DNA of 64,000 bases from Candidatus Poriferihabitaceae bacterium (GTDB taxonomy: Bacteria > Pseudomonadota > Gammaproteobacteria > Arenicellales > Poriferihabitantaceae), in NCBI GenBank assembly GCA_965214625.1, contig OZ243962.1, forward strand, positions 1,005,278 through 1,069,277, given 5' to 3'. Position 1 is the first letter of the stretch; each line of letters starts with the position of its first letter. Under the pieces are notes generated by a model. It ran no database searches. It was not told the DNA's origin and saw nothing but the letters and a program-made list of their open reading frames with translations. Shown here in pieces: positions 9,000 to 64,000 of this stretch. The position numbers were made by a program, and so were the translations under genes.

Positions 9000-9062
9000 G
9001 AAGCGTTAATCCGTATATTTCATAAACTTGCCAGAATGGCCGTATTTTCGGTCTCGACCGGG

Positions 9063-9337
9063 TCATTTACAAGTACACTGCGCCGGGCGACCACCGTTGC
9101 GAACAGGGCCTGATGCGGGGTTGAACGGGCACACAGTCGCATGGACCAGGGCGGTGTGCTTCAGTGCCACTGACCGTAGACGCTCCCGCAGGCTATCCGC
9201 TAGGGAGGATAAAATCATTCTGAATGGGTTGACCCGCCACACTTGACAACTCGTGCGATCGGCAAACAGGTCGAGTTGCGGCTGCTTGATGGCGTTTTCC
9301 CTCTCCCCCGGGCACAGTACACCTGTTCATACAGACA
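9063..9337 (-). pseudogene. IS1380-family-like DDE transposase, C-terminal remnant (truncated and frameshifted)
   Basis: My reverse-strand translation of 9305-9063 gives ERENAIKQPQLDLFADRTSCQVWRVNPFRMILSSLADSLRERLRSVALKHTALVHATVC...*. The adjacent frame (9337-9305) gives CLYEQVYCARG, preceded by a stop. Joined, they give the YCARGE.EN.IKE...LFADRTSC...N.FR..LS signature I recall from IS1380-type transposases. The two halves are offset by 1 nt at the C5 run 9305-9309, and there is no N-terminal part. Confidence 0.55.
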
Positions 9338-9782
9338 TTACGCATGTAATCCAATTTTATGCGCAAATAATCCGGCGCGCATATACAGCTTGCCGGTTGT
9401 GCAAGTCGCTGATTGATCTTCTTATTAATGACTTCGTATCGATTTTGGGGAATAATCAAAACTCACAGTGACGGCACACCGGACACTTTCGCCATTATTT
9501 CACTGGTGGGAAATAAACAACGATCATCGTCGACCCATGGCCATGCTCGTGAAACGACAACTTTCGATTTGAGTTGGCTAGATTTATTTGAAATTACCCG
9601 TCCGTCAATTTTCAACTATTCTCTCAGTCTCGGCTCCGGTGGTGGGCCAAACAATGACAGATAAAATCATGACCCTAAAAGTGGTAACCGGACACCTGAA
9701 ATTAGCAGGAGATCATTTAACATCCAGTAGCGGCCCATAAAAAGAGTGAGTATTCAAAAATCAAGGAAATCATCTGGGGGAA

Positions 9783-11315
9783 ATGACGGTCAACGATCTA
9801 CAATATCCGGTTGTTGACCTTTTTGCCGGACCGGGTGGACTGGGTGATGGATTCTGTTATCCGCATAACGGAAACAGGTCCTCCTTTAAAGTAGTTGCAG
9901 CAATTGAACGTGATGAGTCCGCAAGACAGACTCTGACGCTGCGACACTTTTACAGATATTTCGACCGGGGAAACGTGCCAGATGAATATTATTCTTATCT
10001 GGCAGGCGATATCTTGAAAGAAGAATTACGGGAAAAGTATAAGCGCCAGTGGACTCACGCTGAAAGTACTGTTTTAAAGGCTTCACTGGGTGAAAACAAT
10101 CATAACGATGTAAAGAACCATATCACCCAGCGCCTGATGAAATCCAAGAAGTGGGCGCTGATAGGTGGCCCACCATGCCAAGCATATTCTCTTGCCGGGC
10201 GGTCAAGAATGATGGGTAATCCTGATTTCGAAGAAGATGAAAGACATTTTCTTTACAAGGAATACCTGCGAATAATAATCGACCACTGCCCGCCTGTATT
10301 TGTAATGGAAAATGTCAAGGGTCTATTGTCCGCTCGTATAAACGGTGACCGGGCCGTTGACAAAATAGTCAACGACCTGTCCAGTCCGATCAAAGCAATT
10401 CGAAAGAGTCAAGATGGTTTGAAATACCGACTATATTCTTTTTCCCAGTCAGGTGAAATCAAAGAAGACGTGGACCCGATATCTTTTGTCGTCAAGGCCG
10501 AAAAGCACGGTGTACCACAGGCGCGCCACAGAGTTTTCATACTCGGTATCCGAGATGACATTGATATTCAGCCATCCACCCTACAAAAGAAAAATCCGCC
10601 GACCGTTGAGCAAGTGCTTGGCAGTCTGCCGAAAATACGAAGCGGTGTTTCCCGTCAGAAAGATTCCGGCGATTTATGGAAAAGAATTATTGCCTCTGCC
10701 AGCGGTTCAGATTGGCTGCCTGCGACAAATAAAAAGGAAAGACTGATCAAAAAGACCGTTTTATCGGCCATAAAAGAAATCCAGACTTCAGACCTGCAAA
10801 GATCATCAAAACTCTACAGCCCCCCCTGTGCCATGAGGGCATGGTATGACGATGAACGTCTGAAAACAACAACATTACATGATGCCAGGGCTCACATGGA
10901 AACAGACCTGCTCCGATATCTGTTTGTATCGTCGTATGGGACGGCTTTCGATATCTCGCCAAAACTCTCCGATTTTCCACATGCACTTCTACCCGCACAT
11001 AAGAATGTAAAAAACGGCTGCGAAGGAACAATGTTTCCTGACCGGTTCAGAGTACAGATTAAATCCAGAGTCAGCACGACGGTCACCTCTCATATATCAA
11101 AAGACGGTCATTATTTTATTCATTATGACCCGACACAGTGTCGAAGTCTGACGGTAAGAGAGGCCGCAAGATTACAGACGTTTCCTGATAATTACCACTT
11201 CGAGGGGAACAGAACTTCTCAATACCATCAGGTCGGGAATGCTATTCCGCCCTACCTTGCCATGCAGATTGCAGAGGTTGTCAAAGAAATCCTGAATGGA
11301 ATGTCGGATGACTGA
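9783..11315 (+). CDS. dcm: DNA (cytosine-5)-methyltransferase
   Basis: 510 aa with all C5-MTase motifs in order: I DLFAGPGGLG, IV GGPPCQAYS, VI FVMENVKGL, VIII QARHRVFILG, IX REAARLQTFPD, X QVGNAIPP. About 200 aa lie between motifs VIII and IX (variable/target-recognition region). GGGGGA lies just upstream of the ATG. Confidence 0.95.
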   Translation: MTVNDLQYPVVDLFAGPGGLGDGFCYPHNGNRSSFKVVAAIERDESARQTLTLRHFYRYFDRGNVPDEYYSYLAGDILKEELREKYKRQWTHAESTVLKASLGENNHNDVKNHITQRLMKSKKWALIGGPPCQAYSLAGRSRMMGNPDFEEDERHFLYKEYLRIIIDHCPPVFVMENVKGLLSARINGDRAVDKIVNDLSSPIKAIRKSQDGLKYRLYSFSQSGEIKEDVDPISFVVKAEKHGVPQARHRVFILGIRDDIDIQPSTLQKKNPPTVEQVLGSLPKIRSGVSRQKDSGDLWKRIIASASGSDWLPATNKKERLIKKTVLSAIKEIQTSDLQRSSKLYSPPCAMRAWYDDERLKTTTLHDARAHMETDLLRYLFVSSYGTAFDISPKLSDFPHALLPAHKNVKNGCEGTMFPDRFRVQIKSRVSTTVTSHISKDGHYFIHYDPTQCRSLTVREAARLQTFPDNYHFEGNRTSQYHQVGNAIPPYLAMQIAEVVKEILNGMSDD

Positions 11316-11736
11316 TACACTGACAAAAGAGAAAAGAAGCTGGAATATGTCACGGATAGCGGGGAAGAATACGAAGCCCGAAATTCTGCTGCGCTCACTG
11401 CTTCACCGGGAAGGTTTCCGTTTTCGACTGCATGATAAACGGTTTCCCGGTAAACCTGACATTGTGTTGCCACGATACCGGACTGTTATTTTCGTAAACG
11501 GCTGTTTCTGGCATAGACATGAGAACTGTAAATACGCTTATGCTCCAAAATCAAGGCGGGAATTCTGGTTTAAAAAATTCGATGCAACAGTAAAACGTGA
11601 CCGGACAAACCAGGAAATGCTCGTCAATATGGGCTGGCAGGTCATTGTGGTCTGGGAGTGTGATCTGAAAAAACAGCACAGAAAAACGATTGCGGATATC
11701 TCATCAAGAGTGCTGGGAAGTGTGCATGGCGACTAG
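11308..11736 (+). CDS. vsr: Very-short-patch repair endonuclease
   Basis: TKEKRSWNMSRI..KNTKPEILLRSLLHREGFRFRLHDKRFPGKPDIVLPRYRTVIFVNGCFWHRH matches the Vsr family layout. ATG 11308 overlaps the dcm stop by 8 nt; the track's upstream start at 11296 is less likely. Confidence 0.9.
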   Translation: MTDTLTKEKRSWNMSRIAGKNTKPEILLRSLLHREGFRFRLHDKRFPGKPDIVLPRYRTVIFVNGCFWHRHENCKYAYAPKSRREFWFKKFDATVKRDRTNQEMLVNMGWQVIVVWECDLKKQHRKTIADISSRVLGSVHGD

Positions 11737-13207
11737 ACACAAACTGCCGCCCAGCGCCGCCGCCCTTTCAGAGTCCATGCGAGACCTGGGTTATACTCTG
11801 GCCACTGCAATCGCAGATATTGTGGATAATAGTATTACGGCCAATGCGACCAAAATAGATATATTCTGCGACCTCGCCCGTGACTATCCTTCACTTGTTA
11901 TTATCGATAATGGAGAAGGGATGTCGTTGGACCGCCTTCTTCTGGCTATGAAACATGGGTCAGCCAATCCCAAGGAAGAAAGAAATCCCATGGATCTGGG
12001 AAGATTTGGATTGGGACTCAAAACATCTTCTTTCTCTCAATGTCGTCATTTGACTGTCATCAGCTTCCAGAAATCAAAGTATGTAGGAGCTGACTGGGAC
12101 CTTGATCTCGTCGGGCAGGAGGACGACTGGATCATCTCTATCCTAGACGAAAGTGAAATAGAGCCACTTCCATACATCGAGCATATGACAGGCACCGGTA
12201 CAGCTGTCATCTGGCAGAAACTTGACCGACTGTTCGAAGATCAGGTTGGGGCAAGGCGCGATGAGATTGTTAATGAAAAACTGGATCTTGTCGAAAAACA
12301 CCTTGCCCTTGTATTTCATCGTTTTCTTGCCGGAGAAATCAAAAGCAGACCCAGAATCTCCATAACGATCAATGGACACTGTATTGAACCCTTTGATCCA
12401 TTTTGTAGAAAAAATAAAGCGACAAGAGTATTGCCTGAAGATATCGTCAGAGTTGATGGCAAGGAAATCCGAATTCAACCCTACATTCTGCCCCATCATA
12501 GCCGTCTGTCTGCACCAGAATATGACTATTATCAAAACAGGAGCAATTTTATTTCAAATCAGGGAGCCTATATCTATCGAAATGGAAGACTGATGGCATG
12601 GGGAGACTGGTTTCGACTGATACCGAAAGGGGAAGCAACGAAGCTTGCGCGGGTCTGTATTGATTTCCCTAATGCGCTTGATGAGAAATGGACAATAGAC
12701 ATCAAGAAGTCCAAGGCAAGACCACCGCATGAAGTGCGTCAGAGGATCAAACAGATTATCACAAGAGTCACGGAAAGCAGCACCAGGATTCATCGTGGTC
12801 GTGGCAAAAAGCTTTTTGAAGAATCCAGAGCCCCTGTTTGGGAAAGATACGCCGATAGAGGATGTGTCCGTTATGACCTGAATATCGAACACCCGCTTTT
12901 CTCTGCTCTTGAGCAGAGCCTGACCAAAGAACAGAAGTGCCGATTTGACGTTTATATTCAATCGGTTGTTTCTTCTCTGCCAGTGGAAATGATCTACTCG
13001 GATTATTCCCTGCATCCACTTGATGTCAGCCAGTCAGAAAAAGACCAGGACCGAGCGCTGGAACGTCTCAGGCAACTGAAAGACATCATATCAAATGACA
13101 CCGTAATTGACTCTGCGGCTTTTCGAGAGATTGTCAATTCAACACGGTTATTTATCGGTCTCCAAAACATTGTAGACGACTTCATCAAAGAGGAACTCAA
13201 TGAGTAG
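11726..13207 (+). CDS. GHKL-superfamily ATPase (HATPase_c_3 / MORC- or MutL-like)
   Basis: Bergerat-fold motifs near the N-terminus: N-box IADIVDNSITA, G1 IIDNGEGM, G2 GRFGLGLKTSSF. I found no MutL endonuclease motif (DQHA..E....E) in the roughly 350-aa C-terminal part. ATG 11726 overlaps the vsr stop by 11 nt. Confidence 0.8.
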   Translation: MATRHKLPPSAAALSESMRDLGYTLATAIADIVDNSITANATKIDIFCDLARDYPSLVIIDNGEGMSLDRLLLAMKHGSANPKEERNPMDLGRFGLGLKTSSFSQCRHLTVISFQKSKYVGADWDLDLVGQEDDWIISILDESEIEPLPYIEHMTGTGTAVIWQKLDRLFEDQVGARRDEIVNEKLDLVEKHLALVFHRFLAGEIKSRPRISITINGHCIEPFDPFCRKNKATRVLPEDIVRVDGKEIRIQPYILPHHSRLSAPEYDYYQNRSNFISNQGAYIYRNGRLMAWGDWFRLIPKGEATKLARVCIDFPNALDEKWTIDIKKSKARPPHEVRQRIKQIITRVTESSTRIHRGRGKKLFEESRAPVWERYADRGCVRYDLNIEHPLFSALEQSLTKEQKCRFDVYIQSVVSSLPVEMIYSDYSLHPLDVSQSEKDQDRALERLRQLKDIISNDTVIDSAAFREIVNSTRLFIGLQNIVDDFIKEELNE

Positions 13208-15842
13208 TAGTACTGATAGTGAAAAAATTTTTACAAGCACGCTGATCTCGGCACTCTCACTACTAGACCACACACCGACACGCGAGGATGTAGAGCAGAA
13301 AGCCCGTCAACTCAGTCAGATGTTTGGATACAATGGCACTCTGGAGTCCATTGTCGAAGAAGCTCTTATCGCAATTGATACGCGAATGGGTGCAGGCACC
13401 TCTTTGATCGATGTTAAAGCCGAACATGATGACGAATGGGTATTCAAGTCCGATCTCAAATGGATTTATTCCGAAGGGTACGAGGAATATCTTAGATCTG
13501 AAAAATGGCATCCGGCTGTTGTTCAATCTCTCAGTGATGTGAGTGCCAAGATACTCGGTCACTTGCAGAACCCGGTCTCAGAAGGAGTCTGGGACAGACG
13601 GGGCCTGGTTATCGGACATGTGCAATCCGGCAAGACTGCAAACTATATCGGTCTTGTTGCACGGGCGGCAGATGCCGGATACAAGTTTATTATCGTCATT
13701 GCAGGCATACACAACAATCTTCGAAAACAGACGCAGGAGCGGATTGATGCCGGATTCGTCGGACGGTCAAGTGATCCAAACGCCAGAGAAATCATCGGCG
13801 TAGGATCCAAAAACTATCCACATCCTGCAACACTCACAAATATTTACAAGGATTTCAACAAGCAGACCGCCGACCAGAGTGGCTGGAGCATTAATGACTT
13901 CAGTAAACCCATTATCCTTGTCATAAAGAAACACGTTTCAACGCTTACATCTCTTCAACGCTGGCTGAAAGAACTAAATACCAGGGGAAACGATAAGATA
14001 TCAGATGTACCGATGCTCATTATTGATGATGAAGCAGACAATGCTTCAATAAATACAAACAAAGAGGAATTGGACCCGACACGTACAAATTCGATGCTGA
14101 GAAAAATCCTCGCCATGTTCGACAAATCCTGCTATGTGGGATATACGGCAACGCCATTTGCCAATATTTTCATCAACCCTGAGGCCTACGACGATGAGGC
14201 CAGAGAAGAGTTGTTTCCCAGAGATTTTATTTACTGTCTTGATGCACCTACAACGTATTTTGGTCCGGAAAAAATATTTCTGGATGATGCGAGAAGTGAG
14301 GTTATTCTGCAGACAATCCGCGATGCTGAAAATTATCTGCCCTTTTCCCATAAAAAAGACTTCGAGATTGTTGATCTACCACCCTCACTCTATGAGTCAA
14401 TAGTTCAGTTTATTCTTGTTCGCACAATAAGAAATCTCCGTGGGCATGGAAATAAACACTGTTCAATGATGGTGAATGTCTCGCGTTTCGTCACGATACA
14501 GGGGGCAGTCAGAGATTTTGTCAGCGCGTACGTCAAAATCCTGAAAGAAGCCGTAAAAGCAAACTACGCGATGCCGAACACGGTGTCCTGCCAAAACGAA
14601 CACATGGCACACATAGAAAGTGTATTTCAAGGACAGTTCAACGACTGTGGATTTTCTTGGATAACCATCAAGAAATCACTCTTCAGTACTTTTGAGCATC
14701 TGCGTATTTTCCTTATAAACAGCAAATCTGATGAGACACTTGATTTCAGGAAGTATGAAAAAGAAGACATTGGTCTGACTGCAATTGCCATAGGAGGCTT
14801 AAGCCTTTCGCGTGGACTGACTATTGAGGGACTGTGTGTCAGCTATATGTATCGGAACACAAGGATGTATGACACTTTGATGCAGATGGGCAGATGGTTC
14901 GGATATCGGCCAGGCTACGAAGATCTGTGCAGGGTGTTTTTATCAGAGGATTCCATAAACTGGTATGCCCACATATCTGATGCATCTGAGGAATTGAGAC
15001 AACAGATCAAGCAGATGAGAAAAGACCGTCTCAGCCCAAGAGATTTCGGACTGTATGTGAGAGCTCATCCTGACAGGTTACTTGTCACTGCTGGCAATAA
15101 GATGCGGAGCGGAGAAATCATTCCAGTCAAGCAGAACTTCAGCGGAAAACTTCGGGAAAGTTATATTTTACCTACTGCTGAATATCTCAACGAGCAGAAC
15201 AGGCTGTTGATCAAGGAAAACTGGAAATCAGGATTTGGTAAGAACTATGAGCCCATCGAAACAAAGAAGGGCTGGTATATACCAGATGTCAGATCAGAGA
15301 ATGTCTCAGAATTTCTTCTTTCGTTCCGTGTGCATCCGGCTTTTGTGGAACAGAGAACTGCGCATGCAAATTTTCTTACTGTTATTTCTGATCAGTACAA
15401 TGAATGTGATGTACTTCTGATTTCACTGAAAAACGGCCAAAATGTACGGACATTTGATCTGGGGCCTCAAAACAGGGAGAGTGCAACACTGAAATCCGGG
15501 TGGTGGAGAGTGCAAAAAGACAGGGTCGCAAGCAGAGGCGATGAAAAGCTTGGACTAAGTCCCGAGCAATGCGATGAAGCGAAAAGACACGCTAAACAAG
15601 ACAATAAGGAACCTTCAGATACTCACTACAGGGCGATCAGAAAGAAGCCATTGCTTATGATTCATCTTCTTGATCTCGGAAAAGGCAAGAATAAGCAGTT
15701 TAGCGTTCCAGCGTACGGTATCAGCTTTCCACCGGGCAACTATTCCGAAAGTGTTAATGTCGTGGCAAATAAAGTGTGGGTTGAACAGGTCCATGGCGGT
15801 ACGTTTGATAGGCCGGATGAGGAGGATGACTATGATGAATAA
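13200..15842 (+). CDS. Z1-domain protein (P-loop, SF2 helicase-like NTPase)
   Basis: 880 aa. Walker A GHVQSGKTANYIGL, Walker B LIIDDEADNAS, then the signature I associate with the Z1 domain: LSRGLTIEGL...MYDTLMQMGRWFGYRPGYEDLCRVF. The ATG overlaps the upstream stop by 8 nt. Confidence 0.8.
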   Translation: MSSSTDSEKIFTSTLISALSLLDHTPTREDVEQKARQLSQMFGYNGTLESIVEEALIAIDTRMGAGTSLIDVKAEHDDEWVFKSDLKWIYSEGYEEYLRSEKWHPAVVQSLSDVSAKILGHLQNPVSEGVWDRRGLVIGHVQSGKTANYIGLVARAADAGYKFIIVIAGIHNNLRKQTQERIDAGFVGRSSDPNAREIIGVGSKNYPHPATLTNIYKDFNKQTADQSGWSINDFSKPIILVIKKHVSTLTSLQRWLKELNTRGNDKISDVPMLIIDDEADNASINTNKEELDPTRTNSMLRKILAMFDKSCYVGYTATPFANIFINPEAYDDEAREELFPRDFIYCLDAPTTYFGPEKIFLDDARSEVILQTIRDAENYLPFSHKKDFEIVDLPPSLYESIVQFILVRTIRNLRGHGNKHCSMMVNVSRFVTIQGAVRDFVSAYVKILKEAVKANYAMPNTVSCQNEHMAHIESVFQGQFNDCGFSWITIKKSLFSTFEHLRIFLINSKSDETLDFRKYEKEDIGLTAIAIGGLSLSRGLTIEGLCVSYMYRNTRMYDTLMQMGRWFGYRPGYEDLCRVFLSEDSINWYAHISDASEELRQQIKQMRKDRLSPRDFGLYVRAHPDRLLVTAGNKMRSGEIIPVKQNFSGKLRESYILPTAEYLNEQNRLLIKENWKSGFGKNYEPIETKKGWYIPDVRSENVSEFLLSFRVHPAFVEQRTAHANFLTVISDQYNECDVLLISLKNGQNVRTFDLGPQNRESATLKSGWWRVQKDRVASRGDEKLGLSPEQCDEAKRHAKQDNKEPSDTHYRAIRKKPLLMIHLLDLGKGKNKQFSVPAYGISFPPGNYSESVNVVANKVWVEQVHGGTFDRPDEEDDYDE

Positions 15843-16809
15843 CTCATCTCCATGGGTAGAAATAGGAACACCCGGCACTGACTACAATGTGCGAAAAATA
15901 CCTGGAACAAAAGGTGTCCCACTCTACTGGGGCAAAGATAGTGCCGGGCATTGTCTTTTTATCGTGCTGCTTTCAGGAGATCAGACCGACTTATTTAGGA
16001 AACAGCATGTAAATGTGCGGGGTTTAAAATCCGAATTGAGATTCATTGACACAAACGATTCTCCAGGTCTGGTCATCCGTCTCGAAACACATATTGATCA
16101 GGATATCTTTTCTGCAATGTGTGACACACTTGTCTCCGCTTTGTGTGAAATTAATGATTCGGCTACAGCTCTATCCGTGGCAATGACACAGGTAAAACGC
16201 TGGAAAACTTTTATGGCAGGTGGGAAAAGAGGGGTCCTTTCCATAGAGGAAATCAGAGGTCTCTTTGGAGAACTCATATTCCTGTGGCAATTCCTTGATC
16301 ACACCAATACTGAGAATGATGCAATCGCTGCTTGGGAGGGACCAGAGTCGGTCCAGCAGGACTTTGTCTTTGGAAATACGGCAATCGAAGTTAAAACTTT
16401 GTCAGGCAGAGAAAGAAATTCGGTACGCATATCCTCGGAAGACCAACTGGATAGTCTCAACGACAGGCTTTTTCTGAAAATCTTCCGACTTTCTGAAAAC
16501 CCGGAATCGGACAGGTCTATGTCACTCAATGATCTGGTAAAGAGGATTGCCGGCATTTTTTTGGATCATGCAGTACTCGAATTGTATTACGACAAACTCG
16601 CCAAAGCCGGATACATTGAATTGCATGTATATGACAGCCCCAAATTTATCGTTTCCGAAGAACGACTTTATTATATTACCGATGAGTTTCCTAAACTTAT
16701 TCGCTCCAAGCTACCTGATGGCGTCTCAAATGTTCGTTACGGTATTGCACTGGAGAGAATAAATCCCTTTCTTGTAAAAAGTAATGTTCTGTGGAAGGGC
16801 ATAGTATGA
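15826..16809 (+). CDS. PD-(D/E)XK-motif protein (putative nuclease)
   Basis: D-x8-E-x-K core in QQDFVFGNTAIEVKT. I chose ATG 15826 (GAGGAGG immediately upstream), in frame with track ORF 15670..16809; the first 52 codons of the track ORF lie inside the Z1 gene. It overlaps the Z1 stop by 17 nt. Confidence 0.65.
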   Translation: MTMMNNSSPWVEIGTPGTDYNVRKIPGTKGVPLYWGKDSAGHCLFIVLLSGDQTDLFRKQHVNVRGLKSELRFIDTNDSPGLVIRLETHIDQDIFSAMCDTLVSALCEINDSATALSVAMTQVKRWKTFMAGGKRGVLSIEEIRGLFGELIFLWQFLDHTNTENDAIAAWEGPESVQQDFVFGNTAIEVKTLSGRERNSVRISSEDQLDSLNDRLFLKIFRLSENPESDRSMSLNDLVKRIAGIFLDHAVLELYYDKLAKAGYIELHVYDSPKFIVSEERLYYITDEFPKLIRSKLPDGVSNVRYGIALERINPFLVKSNVLWKGIV

Positions 16810-18875
16810 ACCAGACAATTCTTGAATTCTTCCACGATTTTCGCCAAGACCTCCTGGCTGGTGCGGAAGCGAATTTGAGCTTTCAACTATCGGAATTTAT
16901 GGATGTTGTAAGTGGCGAACTGGTAGATACCGGGTTCATTGATGGTTATGAATTCTGCCACTATCGAGCACAACGTGGTATCAGGGTGGATGGCTATTGG
17001 TTTGATGATGAAGGGACTCTTGATCTTTTCATTGCGGACTTTGAATGCAGGAATGAACTGGCATCTCTGACCAAAACAGAGGTTGATGCCATGTTCAGGC
17101 GATTAATGAAATTCTTCGAAGTCTGTATCGATAAGAATCTGCACCTAGATCTGGAGGAGACCTCGCCGGAATATGGATTGGCGCGGGAGATTCTGGACAG
17201 AAAATCGCAGATCAGAAAAGTCAATTTCTTTCTCATTTCAGAGCGTATTCTCAGTGATCGAATACAGTCAATAGATAACACTAACTTGAACGGAATCAAT
17301 ACTGCATTTCATGTATGGGATATATCCAGACTTCAGCGTCAAAGAAGTTCAAGAGGCCACAAAGAGATTTTAGATATCGATTTTTCTGCCTTAACTGGTT
17401 CCGGCGTTTCCTGCCTGCCCGCACATCTCGGCTCTGGCGCTTACCAAGCGTATCTGGTTGTTCTGCCGGCAAGTGTGCTTTCGGATCTATATGAAAGATA
17501 CGGCTCCAGACTACTGGAACAGAATGTTCGGTGTTTTCTTCAGGCAAGAGGGAATGTCAACAAAGGTATTCGGACAACCATTTTGAACGAACCCGAAATG
17601 TTCTTTGCCTATAACAACGGGATCACGGCAACAGCACAGGAGGTAGATGTAAGAAAAACTGAAAACGGACTTGAAATCGTAACCATCAAAGATCTTCAGA
17701 TCGTAAACGGTGGTCAGACGACCGCTTCACTGTTTCATACGCACAGGAAGGACAAAGCCTCATTGGAAAAGATTTTCGTACAGATGAAACTGTCTGTTAT
17801 TTCCGAATCAGAAAGCGACACTGTCGTCCCCAGAATTTCAGAATATGCCAACACTCAGAATCGTGTGAATGCAGCAGATTTCTTTTCAAATCATCCGTTC
17901 CATATAAGAATCGAGGAGTTTTCAAGGCGCATATGGGCTCCGGCTCAAGATGGCGCTTTAAGGGAAACAAAGTGGTTCTACGAAAGAGCACGGGGACAGT
18001 ATGCGGATGCACAAAGTAAGCTTACTCAAGGAGAGAGGAAACGATTTCAGGCGGAATATCCGAAACCGCAGATGTTTACAAAAACAGATCTCGCCAAATT
18101 TGAGAATGTATGGGATGAAAAGCCGACCTTTGTGAATCTCGGAGCACAAAAGAACTTTGCACAATATGCAAAACGAATCGGTCAGGAATGGAACAAAAGT
18201 CCTGACATCTTTAATGAATTCTATTACAAACGCGCAATTGTTCGAGCCATCCTGTTTCGTAAAACGGAAAAAATAGTGTCGGCACAGCCCTGGTACAACG
18301 GTGGATACAGAGCTAATATCGTGGCGTATACACTGGCATTGCTGGCATTTTATTGCGAGCAGAAGGATAGATCTATCGATTTTATGGCATTGTGGAAAGA
18401 TCAATCTGTTCCGGAAAGCATCCACCAATCACTTGCAGCCACTGCAAAACTGGTCAATGACATTATTATCAATCCAGAAGCAGGTATATCCAATGTAACT
18501 GAGTGGTGTAAAAAGGAGTTGTGCTGGCAAAGATTACAGAAAAAGGTTGACGAACTTGATCATATCCTGCCAAGAGAGTTCAAAGTCGGGCTAATTTTAA
18601 AGAGTGAATTAGTCGAAGCAAAGAAATCCGCTCGGCAAACCCAGAAGATGGACAATGGCATTGAAGCCCAAAAGAGGGTGATGAGCATCTCCGGACCGGA
18701 ATGGCAGAGTCTGCTGCAACGCTCACAGGAAAAAGAACTGCTGACTCAAAAGGAAACCGGGATATTACGGATTGCAACTCAAATACCCAGAAAAATCCCT
18801 TCAGAGAAACAAAGCATGATTTTGATTGATTTTCTGGAGAAGGCCCATCAGGAAGGTATTGTTGTGAATGAATGA
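16806..18875 (+). CDS. AIPR (abortive-infection phage-resistance) family protein
   Basis: About 689 aa from ATG 16806 (ATGA overlap with the upstream stop). The central FFAYNNGITATA...LQIVNGGQTTASL block is the AIPR-type signature as I recall it. Confidence 0.7.
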   Translation: MNQTILEFFHDFRQDLLAGAEANLSFQLSEFMDVVSGELVDTGFIDGYEFCHYRAQRGIRVDGYWFDDEGTLDLFIADFECRNELASLTKTEVDAMFRRLMKFFEVCIDKNLHLDLEETSPEYGLAREILDRKSQIRKVNFFLISERILSDRIQSIDNTNLNGINTAFHVWDISRLQRQRSSRGHKEILDIDFSALTGSGVSCLPAHLGSGAYQAYLVVLPASVLSDLYERYGSRLLEQNVRCFLQARGNVNKGIRTTILNEPEMFFAYNNGITATAQEVDVRKTENGLEIVTIKDLQIVNGGQTTASLFHTHRKDKASLEKIFVQMKLSVISESESDTVVPRISEYANTQNRVNAADFFSNHPFHIRIEEFSRRIWAPAQDGALRETKWFYERARGQYADAQSKLTQGERKRFQAEYPKPQMFTKTDLAKFENVWDEKPTFVNLGAQKNFAQYAKRIGQEWNKSPDIFNEFYYKRAIVRAILFRKTEKIVSAQPWYNGGYRANIVAYTLALLAFYCEQKDRSIDFMALWKDQSVPESIHQSLAATAKLVNDIIINPEAGISNVTEWCKKELCWQRLQKKVDELDHILPREFKVGLILKSELVEAKKSARQTQKMDNGIEAQKRVMSISGPEWQSLLQRSQEKELLTQKETGILRIATQIPRKIPSEKQSMILIDFLEKAHQEGIVVNE

Positions 18876-18935: not shown

Positions 18936-20612
18936 TCATGAATTACAGCAATGATGGTTCAAACGACAGGCGCAGGAAGCATTAATCCCAACATCGGCTC
19001 TTGCGATGGCAAGATTAAGACGAGCACGAAACAACCGGGCCTCTTTTTGTTTACCCAGCCGTTCAAGGCATTCAACCAGTCCATGCAAACTCCATAGATT
19101 ATCAATATGTTGGGACGTGCTGACCAAGGTATCGGTCAGTCCCAAATCATCCATATAGACCTGCTGGGCTTGTTCAACGTAGCCCTGCTCCAGTAACAGA
19201 GCACCCAGTGCATGACGGGCCGGCTGCATCCAGCCCCACGGTTCATCGTATTTCAGATTGTCATCCAGATACACCGCCTTGCGAAGAAAGTCAAAAGCCG
19301 CTTCATGGTTTCCCTCCCGGTACGCAAGTTCCCCCTCCAGCATCTGACTGGCGATCTTGAGAACAGATTGACAGGAATTATTAAACAGATAACAGGTTTC
19401 AGGCACCTTCTCGATCGCATTATAAAAATTGCGACGTTCTGATTTCGCCATGTCGATCTCATTTCGTACGGCATGGGCAATGGCTTTCGCATAGCACCAG
19501 ACTGCAGTTGTCATGCAATACAGTGCCCGGTCGTGAGGCAACGGATGGTGGATAATCTCCTGCCAGCGTCCGAAGCGGATGAAAACATGGGCCTTGATAC
19601 CGATATAGCCTTCCATCCAGTCTGCCATGGCCGGATTTTCAATTCTAAGCAGTGCTTCGGGCGTCGTCTTGATCAATTCTTCCGCCGCATCCATCGCCGT
19701 ACGAAATTGTCCGAGAAACATCGCCGCATAGATTTTCAAATGAAAATTGTGAATCCGTGACAGGGTGTGATAGTTCATCGCGCCTTCATGTTTGAGATAG
19801 ACACGGTCGGCTGCAATGGCTTTGTCATTGGCAACAATCGCTTCGTAGTAGTGACCGCAACGCACATCAATATGGGACGGCATATGGCACAGATGACCTG
19901 AATCAGGGACCAGTTGTCGAAGCTGATCACAGGCCCGCAAAGACTTTTCCGGAAAGGGTGACATTTCCATCACATGAATATACAGGTGCAGTACGCCCGG
20001 GTGAGGAATGGCCCCACTGGCTTCCCGCCGCACCATGGCCTTTTCCAGCACATCAATCGCCTCCAAAGTGGACGCTCCCTCGGACGGGTCGCCGGTTCTC
20101 AGATCCCACAGTGCCCAAGGGGTGCGTATCATCAGTGCTTCAGCAAACAACGCACAAATATCGTCATCCTCCGGATAGACCTGGTAAAGACAACGCATCT
20201 GGTCAGCATACTCATCGTTCCAGCGATTATAGTCAGCAGGCGTTGTGGTATTGGGTGAGGGATATCGCGCCTGTAAGGCATCAATCATCATCGACTCCCG
20301 GTCAGAGTCATATGCCGTCTTCTGTTTTGCCTTACGGGCAAACTGGTACGTCCGTTGCAGTTTTTCCACCAACTCGTCTTGCTGCATTCGTACCCATGGC
20401 TTGTTGTAGTAGATGCCCGAAGAATAGGCCAATCCCCAATACGCCATTGCATGGTCCGGGTCCAGATTACTTGCCTGTTTGAAACAGCGATAAGCCATTT
20501 CCAGATCAAAGCCATAAATCCATATCAAACCGCGATTGAACCAGGACTGGGCCTCGGTGCTACCCCTATTGATGGAATCGAAATAGGCACCCAGATTGTA
20601 GGCGTGATTCAT
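18936..20612 (-). CDS. TPR-repeat protein, function unknown
   Basis: 558-aa ORF with repeated helical-pair segments (EAQSWFNRGLIWIYGFDLEMAYRCFKQASNLDPDHAMAYWGLAYS; HEAAFDFLRKAVYLDDN; VEQAQQVYMDDL). Cys-rich C-terminal tail CACRLNHHCCNS. Confidence 0.55.
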   Translation of the reverse strand: MNHAYNLGAYFDSINRGSTEAQSWFNRGLIWIYGFDLEMAYRCFKQASNLDPDHAMAYWGLAYSSGIYYNKPWVRMQQDELVEKLQRTYQFARKAKQKTAYDSDRESMMIDALQARYPSPNTTTPADYNRWNDEYADQMRCLYQVYPEDDDICALFAEALMIRTPWALWDLRTGDPSEGASTLEAIDVLEKAMVRREASGAIPHPGVLHLYIHVMEMSPFPEKSLRACDQLRQLVPDSGHLCHMPSHIDVRCGHYYEAIVANDKAIAADRVYLKHEGAMNYHTLSRIHNFHLKIYAAMFLGQFRTAMDAAEELIKTTPEALLRIENPAMADWMEGYIGIKAHVFIRFGRWQEIIHHPLPHDRALYCMTTAVWCYAKAIAHAVRNEIDMAKSERRNFYNAIEKVPETCYLFNNSCQSVLKIASQMLEGELAYREGNHEAAFDFLRKAVYLDDNLKYDEPWGWMQPARHALGALLLEQGYVEQAQQVYMDDLGLTDTLVSTSQHIDNLWSLHGLVECLERLGKQKEARLFRARLNLAIARADVGINASCACRLNHHCCNS

Positions 20613-20861
20613 TATCAGTTAACTCTTTTCGAATAAACCTGAAGTCGGTGGACTAAGACTGGATCCAGTCCGGTACGATATGGTTTACTGTATACAAATT
20701 CAACAATAAATGCCATTTGCAGCATGATGTCAATACAGTTTGAGAACCATTTGGCGTATATTCGAAACAGCAACGTCAGGGACATTTTCACTGACGGGAT
20801 ACGCTTAACCTGACCGGGTCCAAGAGAACGGCCAAAAGAGACGTTTTTGTCAGCAGCAAGC

Positions 20862-23273
20862 ATGAAAGATACCGCACAGGTTGTGATTATCGGGGGAGGC
20901 ATCGTCGGCTGTTCCGTAGCCTGGCATCTGGCAAGGAATGGCTGGACCGAGGTGACGCTGGTTGAAAGACAGGAACTGACCTCCGGATCGAGCTGGCATG
21001 CCGCAGGCGGATTGTTTACCGTCACGCGTCCCAACACCGCCGCCTGGGCCCATAAGTATACGTTTGACCTGTATCGGACGATTGAGAAAGAAAGCGGGCA
21101 ATCATGTGGTTTCCATTTTACCGGTGGGCTCAATCTGTGCCGTACCCCGGAAGAAGTGAACAGCAACCTGATGATGCAAAGCGCCTGTCGCAGACTGGGG
21201 ATCGACAGTCATTTCATTTCTCTAAAAGAGGCCCGCGACAAGGCGCCGGTTCTGGACACAACGGATATCATCTCGGTCCTGTGGGAAGAACAGGGCGGAC
21301 ATGTCGATCCCGCATCGGCGACACAGGCATTCGCGGTCGCTGCCCGGAATCTGGGGGTTGAAATCTATCGTCACACCCCGGTCGTTGGGACTATTCAGCA
21401 AACCGACGGTTCATGGCAGGTCCGAACGGAAAAGGGCAATATACAGGCTGAATATATTGTCAATGCCGCAGGACTCTGGGGTCGCGAGGTGGGGAGGCTG
21501 GCGGGGATCGAACTACCGCTCATCCCCGTGGAACATCACTACCTGGTCACGGAAAGCATTCCCCTGATCGAGGATCTGGATTTTGAACTGCCCCAGATCA
21601 ATGACAACGAGACCGGCTGTTATGCAAGACAGGAGGGTCAAGGGCTGTTGCTGGGAGCCTACGAAAAAACCTGTACGCATTGGGCGGTAGAAGAAACACC
21701 CCGGGACTTTGGTCACGAGCTATTGCCCGATGACCTTTCTCGTATGGAATGGAATTTCCGCAAATCAGTCGATATCATGCCCTGTCTGGGACAGGCCGGG
21801 GTCAGGCGTGTGATCAATGGCCCGATGATTTTTTCCCCCGACCTGGGACCCTTGATCGGCCCCCATCCGAACCTGAAAAACTACTTTTGTGCCAATGGGG
21901 TGATGGCGGGATTCAATCAGGGCGCTGCCATTGGGAAAGTGTTGTCGGAATGGATCATTCAGGGGGAACCTGAGTTCGATGTTTATTGCTGGGATGTGGC
22001 CCGATTCGGAAGCTGGGCATCGAAGTCCTATACCCGGGACACGACGCGCTACTTTTATGAGAACCGGTCGGAGAAAATCTACCCGTATCAGGAAATTGAA
22101 GCAGGCCGGCCCCTTCACAAGCCACCCGTCTATGATCGGCTAAAAGCGGCGGGCGGCGTCTTCGGAATGTCTTTTGGTCAGGAACACGCCAACTGGTTTG
22201 CCAGAGAAACCGTCAACGCCCGGGACAGCCTGACCTACCGCCAGCCCAATTGGTGGCAACCGGTGATTGATGAGGGGAAACGGGTGCGCAATGAAGTCGG
22301 CCTGATGGAATTTTCCGCCATGGCCAAATTTGAAGTGAGCGGCCCCAAGGCCGAAAACTGGCTCAATCATGTCATGGCCAATCGTATGCCGCAACCGGGG
22401 AGAATGGGGCTGTCTCCGATGCTCTCGCCCCATGGACGACTGATCGGCGATTTTTCCATTTCACGGATCGGCACCGATCAATTTTGGGTGCTTGGCGCAG
22501 ACACGATGCAGCTTGCCTTCCTGCGCCATTTCAACCGGTTCCTTCCTTACAAAGGCGTCGACGTCCATCATCGGTCATCGCATTACAGTGGCGTGCATAT
22601 TTGTGGCCCTCATGCACAGGCCCTGATCTCCCGTGTGGCGGACCATGACATGGATACCGTGCATTTCCCTTTCATGAGCGCGGCCAGAATCACGCTGGGT
22701 GGCATTGCCGATGTCATCACGCTGCGCGTCTCATACACCGGAGAAACCGGATATGAAATGTATCTGCCGGTCAATCGTCAAGCGGAATTATTCGATCTGC
22801 TGTTCATCGAGGGGCAGACGCTGGGCATTGGCCTGGTCGGCACACGGTGTCTGATGCACACCCGCCTAGAGAAGAGTTTCCCTGCATGGGGACTTGAACT
22901 GTCACCGGACTACACCGTTGTTGAAGCCGGCATGGAACGGTTTGTGAAACGGGACAAAAAGAACTTTGTCGGAAAAAAAGCGGTATTGGCCAACACCCCC
23001 CCGAAAGAACGATTTGTGACCTTGACGGTACAGGCAGATGACGGGGCAATATGGGGTGATGAAGCCATTTATCTGAATGGAACACCGGTCGGATATGTGA
23101 CCTCCGGTGGCTATGGACCGGCATCAGAGTGCCACATTGCCCTGGGTTATGTCCGTGCCGGAGCCGATGACACAAGCGGACAGTATTGTGTTGAAATACT
23201 CGGCAAATTACGCGATGCCGTACTCCACAGGCAACCCGTCTATGACCCCACCGGGGTTCGAATGAGGGCATGA
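20862..23273 (+). CDS. FAD-dependent oxidoreductase fused to a GcvT-type folate-binding domain (dimethylglycine/sarcosine dehydrogenase-like)
   Basis: N-terminal dinucleotide fold VVIIGGGIVGCSVAWHLAR, and TSGSSWHAAGG (covalent-FAD His context of DMGDH-type enzymes). The C-terminal roughly 380 aa have aminomethyltransferase-like strings (YTGETGYEMY). I prefer ATG 20862 to the track's TTG 20847. Confidence 0.8.
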   Translation: MKDTAQVVIIGGGIVGCSVAWHLARNGWTEVTLVERQELTSGSSWHAAGGLFTVTRPNTAAWAHKYTFDLYRTIEKESGQSCGFHFTGGLNLCRTPEEVNSNLMMQSACRRLGIDSHFISLKEARDKAPVLDTTDIISVLWEEQGGHVDPASATQAFAVAARNLGVEIYRHTPVVGTIQQTDGSWQVRTEKGNIQAEYIVNAAGLWGREVGRLAGIELPLIPVEHHYLVTESIPLIEDLDFELPQINDNETGCYARQEGQGLLLGAYEKTCTHWAVEETPRDFGHELLPDDLSRMEWNFRKSVDIMPCLGQAGVRRVINGPMIFSPDLGPLIGPHPNLKNYFCANGVMAGFNQGAAIGKVLSEWIIQGEPEFDVYCWDVARFGSWASKSYTRDTTRYFYENRSEKIYPYQEIEAGRPLHKPPVYDRLKAAGGVFGMSFGQEHANWFARETVNARDSLTYRQPNWWQPVIDEGKRVRNEVGLMEFSAMAKFEVSGPKAENWLNHVMANRMPQPGRMGLSPMLSPHGRLIGDFSISRIGTDQFWVLGADTMQLAFLRHFNRFLPYKGVDVHHRSSHYSGVHICGPHAQALISRVADHDMDTVHFPFMSAARITLGGIADVITLRVSYTGETGYEMYLPVNRQAELFDLLFIEGQTLGIGLVGTRCLMHTRLEKSFPAWGLELSPDYTVVEAGMERFVKRDKKNFVGKKAVLANTPPKERFVTLTVQADDGAIWGDEAIYLNGTPVGYVTSGGYGPASECHIALGYVRAGADDTSGQYCVEILGKLRDAVLHRQPVYDPTGVRMRA

Positions 23274-23416
23274 TGACAGGATGCGTTATTTTCGACAGAC
23301 CAATCTGGCCGCAAACCTTGTCCTGAACCGCCGTCTTCGGGCAACCGTCAGGATTGATGCCAATCCGGCCTGTTGCCGGAAAACCGCCTCAAACCGGTCC
23401 CATCCACAAATCATCC

Positions 23417-24955: not shown

Positions 24956-24990
24956 TGGACCCACCTGATCTGACAATCCGTACCTGACCC

Positions 24991-37588: not shown

Positions 37589-38833
37589 ATGAAACGTTAC
37601 TCAATTTTCAGTCTGCTGCGAAACGCGGTCAGTTATCACCAGAACTGGCAGCGCGCCTGGCGCAGTCCCGAGCCCAGAAAAAAGTACGATGTCGTGATTG
37701 TCGGTGGGGGCGGTCATGGCCTGGCAACGGCCTATTATCTTGCCAAGGAATGCGGCATCAGCAATGTTGCGGTTGTTGAAAAAGGTTGGCTCGGTGGCGG
37801 CAATACCGGGCGCAACACCACCATTGTTCGTTCCAATTATCTGTGGGATGAATCAGCTGCCATTTATGAGCACGCGATGAAGCTATGGGAAAACCTGAGT
37901 GGCGAACTCAACTACAATGTCATGTTCTCCCAGCGGGGTCTTTTGCATCTGGCGCATAGCGTACACGATATGCAGGAAATCGGCCGACGTGGCCACGCCA
38001 TTCATCTCAATGGCATTGATTCGGAGTTCCTGACACCCGCTCAGGTCAAGGAGCTGGTTCCCTTTATCAATCTGAAATGCCGTTATCCGGTCATGGGTGC
38101 CTTGCTGCAACGCCGGGGCGGCACCGCCCGTCACGATGCGGTGGCATGGGGATACGCCCGGGCAGCGGATGCCCTGGGCGTCGATATTATCCAAAATTGC
38201 GAGGTCACCGGTTTCCAGATTGAAGACAATGCCGTCAGGGGGGTGAGGACGAATCGGGGATTGATTGGTGCCCGGAAAGTGGGCTGTGTGGTCGCCGGTC
38301 ACTGCAGTGTGCTTGCCGAGATGGCGGGATTCCGGTTGCCCATTGAATCTTTTCCGTTACAGGCTCTGGTCTCCGAACCGATGAAGCCGGTGCTGAACTG
38401 CGTCGTGATGTCGGGCAGCGTCCACGCCTACATCAGCCAATCCGACAAAGGTGAACTGGTGATTGGTGCCGGTTCCGATATTTATAATTCCTACTCCCAA
38501 CGTGGCGGTTTTAACGTGATCGAAGAAACCGTTGGCCCCGTGGTCGAGTTATACCCCGTGTTCTCAAGAGTCAAAATGCTCCGACACTGGGGCGGTATCG
38601 TCGATGTGACGGTTGACCGGTCACCGGTGATCTCGACCACCCCCGTCCATAACCTGTTCTTTAACTGCGGCTGGGGAACCGGTGGGTTTAAGGCCACACC
38701 CGGTTCGGGTCACGTGTTTGCCCACTCCATTGCCCAAGGCATCATGCATCCGATTGCAGAACCGTTCTCCATGAATCGTTTCAATACCGGAGCCTTGATT
38801 GATGAAGGCGCCGCCGCAGCCGTCGCACACTGA
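37589..38833 (+). CDS. soxB: Sarcosine oxidase subunit beta
   Basis: 414 aa. [24 protein letters not shown]... then FAD fold [22 protein letters not shown]; followed by the delta, alpha and gamma genes. Confidence 0.92.
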
Positions 38834-38845
38834 TTGAGGATCGAG

Positions 38846-63215: not shown

Positions 63216-64000
<785 letters not shown>

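Follow-up and report, generated by a model that had tools for sequence, protein, structure and literature searches.

What is a six-gene operon that joins a DNA methyltransferase and a mismatch-repair endonuclease to a MORC-type ATPase, a helicase-like motor, a nuclease and an AIPR family protein, and does the methyltransferase belong to the machinery beside it? The locus that raises this question lies in a 64,000-nucleotide stretch of DNA (the window) from a Candidatus Poriferihabitaceae bacterium. In the window's ORF list, six co-directional ORFs span positions 9783–18875 on the plus strand, in the order Dcm, Vsr, MORC-type GHKL ATPase, DEAD-Z1 motor, DUF4420 nuclease and AIPR. An earlier note, written from the sequence alone, had described the run as gap-free; this is borne out, and with the likeliest start codons the genes overlap at all junctions by 4–11 nt (up to 20). 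The overlaps are 8 nt (ATG at 11308) or 20 nt (ATG at 11296) at Dcm/Vsr, 11 nt (ATG at 11726) at Vsr/GHKL, 8 nt at GHKL/Z1, 8–11 nt (ATG at 15835 or 15832) at Z1/DUF4420, and 4 nt (ATGA at 16806) at DUF4420/AIPR.

The ~9.1-kb chromosomal operon is horizontally acquired. Its G+C content is foreign, 0.43–0.48 against 0.50–0.59 in the flanks, and the segment is exchanged faster than they are. Relative to a sister genome (L081), dN/dS values of 0.03–0.21 indicate purifying selection on all six genes. Upstream lies a non-coding leader or promoter region (9010–9782, plus strand) whose ORFs lack any Pfam, PADLOC or NCBIfam match and in which consensus promoter matches are no commoner than in shuffled sequence. 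Only its last ~235 bp (9546–9782) are common to the sister genome, aligning at 83%; positions 9010–9545 have no counterpart there.

The first two genes encode the methylase module. Dcm (9783–11315, 510 aa) is a C5-cytosine DNA methyltransferase by Pfam (DNA_methylase, 1e-47), by NCBIfam (dcm, 140 bits, above the cut-off of 100.65) and by the motifs FAGPGG, GPPCQ, ENV, QARHR and GNAIPP in its translation. Its target-recognition region is long (~200 aa), and its top PADLOC match is DrmMII (1e-91). Vsr (11308–11736, alternative start 11296; 142 aa), a very-short-patch (T:G mismatch) repair endonuclease, matches Pfam Vsr (9e-32) and NCBIfam vsr (145.8 bits, above the cut-off of 97.85), and its residues P54, D55, W72 and H73 are invariant among 66 homologues.

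The remaining four genes are hereafter called the core. The MORC-type GHKL ATPase with S5 domain (11726–13207, 493 aa) is MzaB-like (Pfam HATPase_c_3, 2e-30; PADLOC MzaB, 1.4e-80; NCBIfam MzaB, 305.6 bits, under the cut-off of 850). Across 77 homologues there is no variation in its N-box D..DN, G1 DxGxG and G2 GxxGxG motifs or in the S5 motif of MORC, G-x-Y-x-Y-R-x-x-R-L, and it gives weak PDB matches to N-terminal parts of MORC2 and MutL (E about 1e-3). The MzaC-like DEAD-Z1 protein (13200–15842, 880 aa) is a superfamily-2 helicase-like motor with additional N- and C-terminal regions of no recognised fold. It matches Pfam Z1 (3e-74), weakly ResIII (5e-06), PADLOC MzaC (8.5e-133) and 'Type II helicase domain protein' (1.5e-38), and NCBIfam MzaC at 500.6 bits, under the cut-off of 1500. 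It contains the DEAD-Z1 hallmarks that were defined for H.CglI, all of them invariant: Walker A (QSGKT), DDEAD, TAT, and a motif VI that keeps the QxxR spacing.

The MzaD-like DUF4420 PD-(D/E)XK nuclease (15835–16809, 324 aa, or 325 aa if it starts at 15832) matches Pfam DUF4420 (1e-63), PADLOC MzaD (1.4e-22) and NCBIfam MzaD (131.5 bits, under the cut-off of 420), with E146, D176, E185 and K187 invariant among homologues. Its AF2 model has pLDDT 88 and pTM 0.85. The N-terminal ~100 residues bear a weak likeness to the SycE/YbjN fold, with no PDB match at E<=1e-3. The MzaE-like AIPR protein (16806–18875, 689 aa) comprises AIPR_N (Pfam, 4e-45), the AIPR core (Pfam AIPR, 1e-102) and a C-terminal extension of ~100 aa absent from canonical MzaE (595–597 aa). 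It matches PADLOC MzaE (5e-89) and NCBIfam MzaE (372.6 bits, under the cut-off of 1050), its core matches the PADLOC AbiU model (6e-26), and in 70 homologues NNGITATA and QIVNGGQTTAS never vary; its predicted structure is poor (pLDDT 68.5) and yields no structural match. Across the operon, catalytic motifs are all invariant in 66–82 homologues, down to ~38% identity. The motif strings quoted in the earlier note are all present in the translations, and Pfam recovers every domain it named, overall at 1e-30 to 1e-102. A search of the core proteins for a 5mC-reading or sequence-recognition domain found none, nor did any operon protein show a toxin-like or membrane domain.

Is this operon Mza? The earlier note took that name from a 2020 survey; name and survey are right, and PADLOC models of MzaB–E match at 1e-22 to 8.5e-133, but strictly speaking the operon is something other than Mza. 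Because the scores of the four core proteins, homologues of MzaB–E, amount to only roughly a third of the NCBIfam equivalog cut-offs and the MzaA sigma-factor gene is absent, the operon is an MzaA-less, Dcm/Vsr-linked sister subtype. The note's judgement that this is no classical type I, II or III restriction-modification (R-M) system also stands.

The gene set itself is not new, having been in print since 2008 and again in 2022. Iyer, Abhiman and Aravind (2008) described a neighbourhood with MORC, an SFII helicase (with a DThhQXuRhFG domain), a novel RE-fold protein, DCM, Vsr and AIPR; they found linked methylases to be largely cytosine and seldom adenine enzymes, and predicted that eukaryotic MORCs respond to epigenetic marks, DNA methylation among them. 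In 2022 Miller et al. gave the set as a putative 'type II' defence system with a 689-aa AIPR protein, and they credit mzaABCDE to Gao et al. (2020). The operon thus adds one more case to a defence system that is known but mechanistically unsolved. Related systems are active: E. coli mzaABCDE lowers infection by T4(C) and by T4(hmC) 10^3- to 10^4-fold, and Serratia SDIC2 (a 'novel mza subtype') gives at least 1000-fold protection in E. coli. Strains encoding 'mza' are described in the literature as carrying a GCAGC modification motif, which favours a link to methylation. Contrary to the earlier note, roles are on record for some of the proteins: the DEAD-Z1 domain of H.CglI is an ATP-dependent dsDNA translocase required for cleavage, and purified E. 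coli MzaD cleaves DNA, with active-site mutants weakened.

We compared 80 related loci, limiting counts to those with enough flank where stated. The GHKL gene lies directly upstream of Z1 in 75 of 77 loci, and DUF4420 and AIPR follow Z1 directly in all 67 of 67. These loci come from many phyla, and the arrangement is far beyond chance expectation. The four core proteins evolve in close concert, their pairwise identities correlating at rho 0.87–0.96. The note's linkage of methylase to the other genes also stands up, in that a C5-methylase adjoins the core in 53 of the 54 loci whose flanks are long enough; canonical Mza loci on plasmids, too, have a Dcm beside them, whether or not Vsr and a restriction endonuclease accompany it.

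The methylase module is swapped against a nearly constant core, an exchange reported in neither Iyer 2008 nor Miller 2022. Dcm correlates with Vsr at rho 0.60, whereas the Dcm–Vsr pair correlates with the core at only 0.28–0.34 (Dcm 0.28; Vsr with GHKL 0.34), and its position and orientation vary between loci. Among the locus pairs, 43 combine a Z1 identity of at least 75% (maximum 94%) with a Dcm identity below 55%; pairs of this kind are ~36% identical in the target-recognition region. The module's partners vary as well. In five of the 53 loci with an adjacent methylase (L067, L069, L071, L073 and L076) Dcm is fused to an HhH/FeS glycosylase-like domain, which takes the place of Vsr in some loci, and the fusion gene stops immediately before the GHKL start. 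In three others (L053, L082 and L086) the methylase is part of an apparently complete type II R-M system that has an endonuclease of its own.

Combining these observations, we propose, at a probability of roughly one half, that the operon is an R-M-like system in which Dcm marks self and the core attacks unmarked DNA directly. Dcm family enzymes methylate cytosine at C5 at their own target sites, and Vsr family enzymes repair T:G arising from 5mC deamination; here, Dcm would methylate host DNA and Vsr would mend the resulting mismatches. Co-evolution and translational coupling suggest that the four core proteins act as one unit, probably a complex. On DNA lacking the mark, the DEAD-Z1 protein would translocate along dsDNA with ATP, as its likeness to the CglI H subunit predicts. 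The MORC-type ATPase may dimerise upon ATP, clamp or loop DNA and license the nuclease, much as MutL licenses MutH and UvrD; the MORC/MutL parallel is an analogy, not evidence. The DUF4420 protein would then cleave DNA, degrading the invader directly without cell suicide, as the E. coli MzaD and mzaABCDE data suggest. AIPR might act as a further effector or else as a sensor. Since the core hardly changes where its C5-methylase module is swapped, it probably lacks an intrinsic, fixed sequence specificity. The methylase could fill the role of specificity or hand-off subunit that Mod has in type III systems, or the core could be blocked by 5mC generally.

Several observations weigh against this proposal. 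First, no C5-methylase lies within 9 kb of the E. coli mzaABCDE loci, and the available part of the account mentions none co-cloned with the active construct, so the core may need no dedicated methylase; that Dcm marks self is for this reason something we infer. Second, hmC gave T4 no shield from E. coli Mza. Third, the core proteins show no domain for reading 5mC or sequence, and AIPR, poorly modelled and unmatched, leaves one of the four without an assigned activity. The first point also favours an alternative that we consider unlikely though the strongest of the rivals: the core would be a methylation-independent Mza-type nuclease and helicase defence that tells self apart otherwise, for example by replication state, DNA ends or a phage trigger, with Dcm–Vsr a separate, co-located orphan or R-M-remnant module. 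The weak Dcm–core co-evolution and shifting placement would also fit plain co-location of two independent modules, as would the three loci with apparently complete type II systems. Against it, the methylase adjoins the core almost throughout the clade, the window's Dcm is translationally coupled to the core through overlapping codons, the Dcm-fusion reading frame reaches the GHKL start in five loci, and the cytosine bias of linked methylases noted by Iyer et al. is hard to square with chance co-location.

Abortive infection, which the earlier note had kept as an option, is improbable. Here AIPR, with or without the nuclease, would kill or arrest the cell once the ATPases sense infection, and the methylase would be a safety catch only. 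The family name ('abortive infection phage resistance') and the AbiU match favour this idea. However, E. coli cells carrying mzaABCDE show growth arrest at no MOI, and MzaD nuclease mutants weaken defence, pointing to direct DNA targeting; moreover, toxin-like and membrane domains are absent from all the proteins.

A repair pathway rather than immunity has very little probability. Vsr is stimulated by E. coli MutL, and the gene content parallels Vsr + MutL + UvrD + MutH: Vsr would nick Dcm-made T:G, the MutL-like ATPase would stimulate Vsr, and helicase and nuclease would clear the patch. Yet Vsr and GHKL hardly co-evolve, Vsr is replaceable by the glycosylase-like fusion, the segment is foreign and quickly exchanged, and the E. 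coli core, lacking Vsr and Dcm, has measured anti-phage activity. Equally remote is type IV-like restriction of foreign modified cytosines that ignores the host Dcm pattern: E. coli Mza restricts T4(hmC) and the Iyer prediction for eukaryotic MORCs would suit it, but T4 with unmodified cytosine is restricted with equal efficiency, and a C5-methylase in a coupled operon would make self targets.

How, then, does the R-M-like system that we favour compare with known ones? DISARM class 2 shares the logic of methylase, SF2 helicase and nuclease, and the window's Dcm matches its DrmMII best; DrmA, DrmB, DrmC and DrmE are absent, however, and the other five proteins match no DISARM model. MutL–MutH–UvrD and eukaryotic MORC offer a GHKL+S5 ATPase, helicase and PD-(D/E)XK nuclease, the MORC-specific S5 motif, and nuclease action dependent on DNA methylation state. 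Here similarity is detectable in the N-terminal ATPase region only, and the operon has an island-borne defence context without a MutS-like sensor. CglI and NgoAVII (M + R + H subunits) combine a C5-methylase with a DEAD-Z1 motor bearing the same motifs, and their R-M-like logic, with cleavage dependent on ATP-driven translocation, resembles that proposed for the window operon. Their nuclease is a PLD enzyme with a B3-like DNA-reading domain in place of DUF4420, and the operon here adds the MORC ATPase and AIPR. Mza (mzaABCDE; NCBIfam NF041931-35; PADLOC mza) shares the order GHKL, Z1, DUF4420 PD-(D/E)XK and AIPR in one operon, model matches for MzaB–E (1e-22 to 1e-150), catalytic motifs, and an island-borne, horizontally mobile character. 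Unlike Mza, the operon lacks the sigma-70-like MzaA gene, has a Z1 only ~35% identical to canonical plasmid Z1 and an AIPR ~95 aa longer, and incorporates Dcm and Vsr, where E. coli Mza has no linked methylase. From the 'third type' MORC R-M operon of Iyer 2008 and the 'type II' putative system of Miller, Stern and Burstein (2022), both defined computationally, it differs in nothing essential: with the same gene set, including the MORC GHKL+S5 protein and the RE-fold E-D-ExK nuclease, the window locus is a member.

Six genes on the forward strand fill positions 9783–18875 of the window, each starting inside its predecessor. In order they encode a Dcm-type C5-methylase (from 9783), Vsr (11308), a GHKL ATPase (true start the ATG at 11726), a Z1-domain protein (13200), a DUF4420 protein (15835) and an AIPR protein (16806). 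Reading the junctions with start codons that fit the profile alignments gave overlaps of 8 nt (or 20 nt) for Dcm/Vsr, 11 nt for Vsr/GHKL, 8 nt for GHKL/Z1, 8–11 nt for Z1/DUF4420 and 4 nt (ATGA) for DUF4420/AIPR. The earlier note, made from the sequence alone, had described a gap-free six-gene operon, and overlaps of 4–20 nt at every junction bear this out. Pfam recovered every domain it named: DNA_methylase (1e-47), Vsr (9e-32), HATPase_c_3 (2e-30), Z1 (3e-74; its Walker A/B half also matches ResIII weakly), DUF4420 (1e-63), and AIPR_N (4e-45) with AIPR (1e-102). All motif strings it quoted are in the translations. The observation is real, and the identification offered with it was largely right.

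The individual proteins carry the signatures expected of their families. In PADLOC, the methylase matches type II methylase and DrmMII models and Vsr matches the Vsr model. The GHKL protein has intact N-box, G1 and G2 motifs, and its MORC S5 motif (GhXhhpXXRhl) reads GAYIYRNGRLM, its G, Y, Y, R, R and L being invariant among 77 homologues; its matches to PDB structures are confined to the N-terminal parts of MORC2 and MutL. The Z1 protein reads DTLMQMGRWFG at the DThhQXuRhFG motif, invariant in 82 homologues, and its Q-containing Walker A (VQSGKT), DDEAD and motif VI (QMGR, with QxxR spacing) are likewise invariant. No confident position could be assigned to its H/H motif.

The RE-fold residues of the DUF4420 protein (E146, D176, E185, K187) are invariant, and its AF2 model is confident (pLDDT 88, pTM 0.85). 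Against PDB folds the model gave no match at E<=1e-3; a weak likeness to T3SS-chaperone SycE/YbjN-like folds (E 0.02–0.05) is limited to the first ~100 residues, and no known DNA-reading or 5mC-reading fold is recognisable. The AIPR model is mediocre to poor (pLDDT 68.5, pTM 0.44). The string VNGGQTT recalls the DGQQR of ParB/Srx (DUF262/GmrS-like) NTPases, a relationship that we found unsupported: Foldseek against the PDB returned nothing below E 0.1 (ParB-N at E 1.3, probability 0.13), and neither a profile search of PDB sequences nor a relaxed Pfam scan gave a match.

The operon lies in otherwise ordinary chromosome, with Lhr, PolA, UvrD, sarcosine oxidase, tRNA-Met and the end of an rRNA operon elsewhere in the window. 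Its G+C is 0.43–0.48, against 0.50–0.59 in the surroundings. A tauD-like gene, beside uvrB, flanks it on one side and a convergent gene for a 558-aa TPR-repeat protein (18936–20612, minus strand) on the other. Between the operon and a DMGDH-like gene, this TPR gene is followed by a 183-aa ORF without family matches (20615–21166, minus strand), both at an intermediate G+C of 0.50. We rejected these two as parts of the system, because beyond the window they are confined to its sister genome, with 0 of 80 related loci carrying them. The ORFs neighbouring the island include no recognised integrase or transposase, and the sole tRNA gene (tRNA-Met, 48814–48890, plus strand) is 30 kb away; the 5S rRNA gene and the 3' end of the 23S rRNA gene (62865–64000, minus strand) lie at the window edge, also not near the island. 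Upstream of the operon, no ORF in 9000–9782 matches any model or library, including any MzaA-like or regulator gene, and 9000–9790 has no similar sequence elsewhere in the window. Promoter and terminator scans gave matches no commoner than in shuffled sequence. Searches of E. coli genomes and plasmids found no DNA near-identical to the operon. Separately, a methylamine/glycine-betaine-type catabolic cluster (DMGDH/GcvT fusion, MttB-family methyltransferase and sarcosine oxidase subunits; 20847–26082 and 37589–42159) fits a marine or host-associated proteobacterium.

The operon is also present, at the corresponding site, in a sister genome, GCA_001752985.1 (2984–12070 of the locus compared). 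Flanking genes are 98–98.6% identical in DNA, the six island genes 91.5–97%. Synonymous divergence (dS) is 0.10–0.24 across the island against 0.03–0.08 in flanking housekeeping genes, a 2–6-fold excess, with Dcm and Z1 the most diverged. All six genes have dN/dS of 0.03–0.21 and are therefore functional. The alleles of the island are older than the genes around them, which suggests allelic exchange by recombination, not decay. The left junction of the island varies between the two genomes: ~540 bp upstream of the operon (9010–9545), with no recognisable ORF and no similar sequence elsewhere in the window, has no counterpart in the sister genome, where an unrelated ~210 bp stands instead. The TPR gene and the 183-aa ORF are common to both.

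Which system is this? The earlier note proposed the name Mza, and PADLOC supports it to the extent that the last four proteins match MzaB (1.4e-80), MzaC (8.5e-133), MzaD (1.4e-22) and MzaE (5.1e-89), in that order. It does not hold in the strict sense. NCBIfam has equivalog models for MzaA–E with curated cut-offs, and the window proteins reach about one third of them (MzaB 305.6 of 850, MzaC 500.6 of 1500, MzaD 131.5 of 420, MzaE 372.6 of 1050), whereas the MzaE of a canonical locus, L086, passes at 1057 of 1050; on the PADLOC Mza models, proteins of another, L082, have 2–3 times the scores of those in the window. Canonical loci also encode MzaA, a sigma-70-family protein of 627–750 aa whose C-terminal half resembles RpoD (L082 3362–5245; L086 2010–4262; L088 3919–5982; L089 5280–7331). 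MzaA may be a regulator, or else a decoy or sensor for phage factors targeting sigma-70. The window operon has none, and Dcm and Vsr sit where MzaA would be, directly upstream of MzaB. Given the low scores and the missing MzaA, we assign the operon to a sister subtype of Mza.

The Z1 protein was scanned against collections holding one genome per species, which yielded at least 590 relatives. The best 80, at 38–71% identity, come from Alpha-, Beta-, Gamma- and Deltaproteobacteria, Rhodothermales, Chloroflexi/Dehalococcoidia, Planctomycetota, Armatimonadota, Leptospira and others. We searched these loci by tblastn with the six window proteins. The earlier note had proposed conservation of gene order as a check, and the order is indeed kept: Z1 is directly preceded by a same-strand GHKL gene in 75 of the 77 loci with room for it, and directly followed by DUF4420 and AIPR in all 67. 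More distant Z1 proteins (22–39% identical to the window's) are encoded on seven 'Bacteriophage sp.' contigs (H37–H43), all unannotated and obtained from human faecal samples, so that motors of this type may travel on phage or prophage DNA too.

A methylase almost always accompanies the four-gene core. tblastn found Dcm within 10 kb in 46 of 54 loci, leaving eight apparent exceptions. Five of these have a Dcm of 638–639 aa fused to an HhH/FeS glycosylase-like domain and ending immediately before the GHKL start (L067 6543–8462; L069 6594–8513; L071 6580–8499; L073 and L076 6580–8496); a fusion at L050 589–2427 (minus strand) is listed with this group. The others are a short Dcm (320 aa), an HTH–Dcm with Vsr and an EcoRII-type endonuclease downstream, and a truncated locus adjoining a resolvase. 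With seven of the eight thus accounted for, a C5-methylase with a T:G repair function stands beside the core in 53 of 54 loci, in varying position and orientation. In the fusions, found in Dehalococcoidia and related loci, the C-terminal HhH and endonuclease-III-type FeS region looks like a built-in T:G glycosylase, a functional analogue replacing Vsr. In some loci the methylase belongs to an apparently complete type II system with its own endonuclease (L053 16007–19054, minus strand, EcoRII-C type; L082 1–2617; L086 11454–13874), which suggests that the core can sit beside a conventional restriction-modification system and perhaps share its methylase.

Core and methylase evolve almost independently. 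We correlated pairwise identities across the 51 loci with all six genes. GHKL, Z1, DUF4420 and AIPR follow one another closely (rho 0.87–0.96); Dcm and Vsr do so less (0.60), and either of them against any core protein gives only 0.28–0.34. In 43 locus pairs Z1 is at least 75% identical yet Dcm less than 55%. Between loci L015 and L018, for example, identity is 0.90 for GHKL, 0.94 for Z1, 0.87 for both DUF4420 and AIPR, but 0.46 for Dcm and 0.51 for Vsr. Target-recognition regions in the discordant methylase pairs are ~36% identical. The four core proteins therefore behave as one unit, against which the modification and repair module has been exchanged.

Such exchange is informative. In an ordinary type II system, replacing the methylase by itself would be lethal except where the two enzymes have a target in common. 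A better fit to the pattern is a core with no fixed specificity of its own, the methylase supplying it or 5mC acting as a general gate. One tentative extension, to which we give a minority of the weight, is that the core is a restriction machine without sequence specificity of its own, taking its self/non-self rule from whichever C5-methylase is adjacent. The methylase might act as a detachable specificity subunit of the core, or the translocating core might be halted by 5mC in any sequence context. If true, this would be a new restriction-modification logic, a plug-and-play methylase with a universal 5mC-gated effector, and prokaryotic MORC ATPases would gain a concrete role in reading DNA methylation, as long proposed for eukaryotic MORCs.

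We consider a restriction-modification-like mechanism, in which Dcm marks self and the core attacks unmarked DNA and degrades the invader directly, to be the leading reading, at a probability of about 0.5. Dcm would mark host DNA, with Vsr limiting the mutational cost of that methylation. The co-evolving MORC/DEAD-Z1/DUF4420/AIPR unit would load on unmarked DNA, the DEAD-Z1 motor would translocate along it, the MORC ATPase would clamp the DNA and license the nuclease, and DUF4420 would cut. Either the methylase or a generic 5mC gate could provide the specificity.

Published experiments concern relatives of the operon. According to a 2022 preprint, cloned E. coli mzaABCDE protects 10^3- to 10^4-fold against T4 carrying cytosine or hmC and only ~10-fold against glucosylated wild-type T4; purified MzaD cleaves DNA in vitro, and the MzaD mutants D187A and P297A weaken defence. 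A Serratia study reports at least 1000-fold protection in E. coli by SDIC2, 'likely a novel mza subtype', and a nanopore paper ties strains with a 'methyltransferase-encoding mza' to a GCAGC modification motif. The phage-protection data concern E. coli mzaABCDE and Serratia SDIC2, and in the literature we found no paper giving a mechanism for Mza as a whole.

The main competing explanation is a core that works independently of methylation, beside a methylase that is simply co-located. In its favour, E. coli Mza has no linked methylase; on the other side stands the C5-methylase beside the core in nearly every related locus. We regard it as a serious minority view. Less likely than this is abortive infection, which we rate as improbable: the preprint saw no growth arrest at any MOI with E. 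coli mzaABCDE, and the weaker defence of its MzaD mutants points to direct targeting of DNA. Least credible, and also behind a methylation-independent core, are a dedicated repair pathway and a type IV-like system, each of which we think very improbable.

Mza-type systems are now routinely catalogued in genomes. Of their versions, the Dcm/Vsr-linked subtype shows most clearly a self-marking component built into the operon, and it is widespread, which together make it a good entry point. An exchangeable methylase module set against a constant core is a testable constraint on the mechanism, and the subtype would bear on the long-standing idea of MORC ATPases as proteins that respond to methylation by acting on DNA.

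How does the operon compare with known systems? The earlier note had argued that this is not a classical type I, II or III system (HsdR/S, stand-alone type II endonuclease, Res/Mod), and PADLOC agrees: no REase, S or Res model matched in the operon, the only restriction-modification-type models matched being MTase_II, Vsr and 'Type II helicase domain protein'. DISARM shares with it the match of the methylase to DrmMII models, whereas DrmA, DrmB (DUF1998), DrmC and DrmE are unmatched in PADLOC. CglI/NgoAVII is closer in its motor. Toliusis et al. defined the hallmark motifs of the DEAD-Z1 motor on the CglI H subunit, an ATP-driven dsDNA translocase needed for cleavage, and the Q-containing Walker A, DDEAD and QxxR are common to the window Z1 protein. 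The two differ in other features: the window operon has no gene for an R subunit (PLD nuclease plus B3-like DNA-binding domain), its nuclease is the PD-(D/E)XK protein DUF4420 in place of a PLD enzyme, and the H subunit's C-terminal domain (6F1S type) has no counterpart in the Z1 protein, whose C-terminal region matched no PDB chain of that type as a single sequence or as a 28-sequence profile.

Canonical Mza differs at its upstream end. On Neorhizobium and Thalassospira plasmids a sigma-70-family gene is followed by ATPase, Z1, PD-(D/E)XK and AIPR genes, and on E. coli chromosomes mzaABCDE adjoins yecA. In E. coli G1/2 (L088 5988–8830) an IS421 (IS4-like) insertion splits mzaB, and the system there is probably inactive. 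Miller et al. (2022) treat mzaABCDE as validated, with Gao et al. (2020) as its source, and describe mzaA as a sigma factor.

The closest descriptions are two earlier ones. Among prokaryotic MORC operons, Iyer, Abhiman and Aravind (2008) distinguished a 'third type'. It combines a distinct SFII helicase, bearing DThhQXuRhFG in its C-terminal domain, with a novel protein of RE fold that has E-D-ExK; cytosine methylase and Vsr genes are frequent, and AIPR is drawn in the gene-neighbourhood figure. The window operon has every feature of this MORC-type restriction-modification operon. Miller, Stern and Burstein (2022) found the gene set again as a 'putative defence system' with a core of Z1, DUF4420 and cytosine methylase, and with a type II that also includes AIPR and a MORC-like protein. 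All type II components are present in the window, and its AIPR protein, at 689 aa, equals in length the type II-A AIPR cluster. With the gene set described in 2008 and 2022 and relatives catalogued and partly validated, the window operon is a further instance of a known family.
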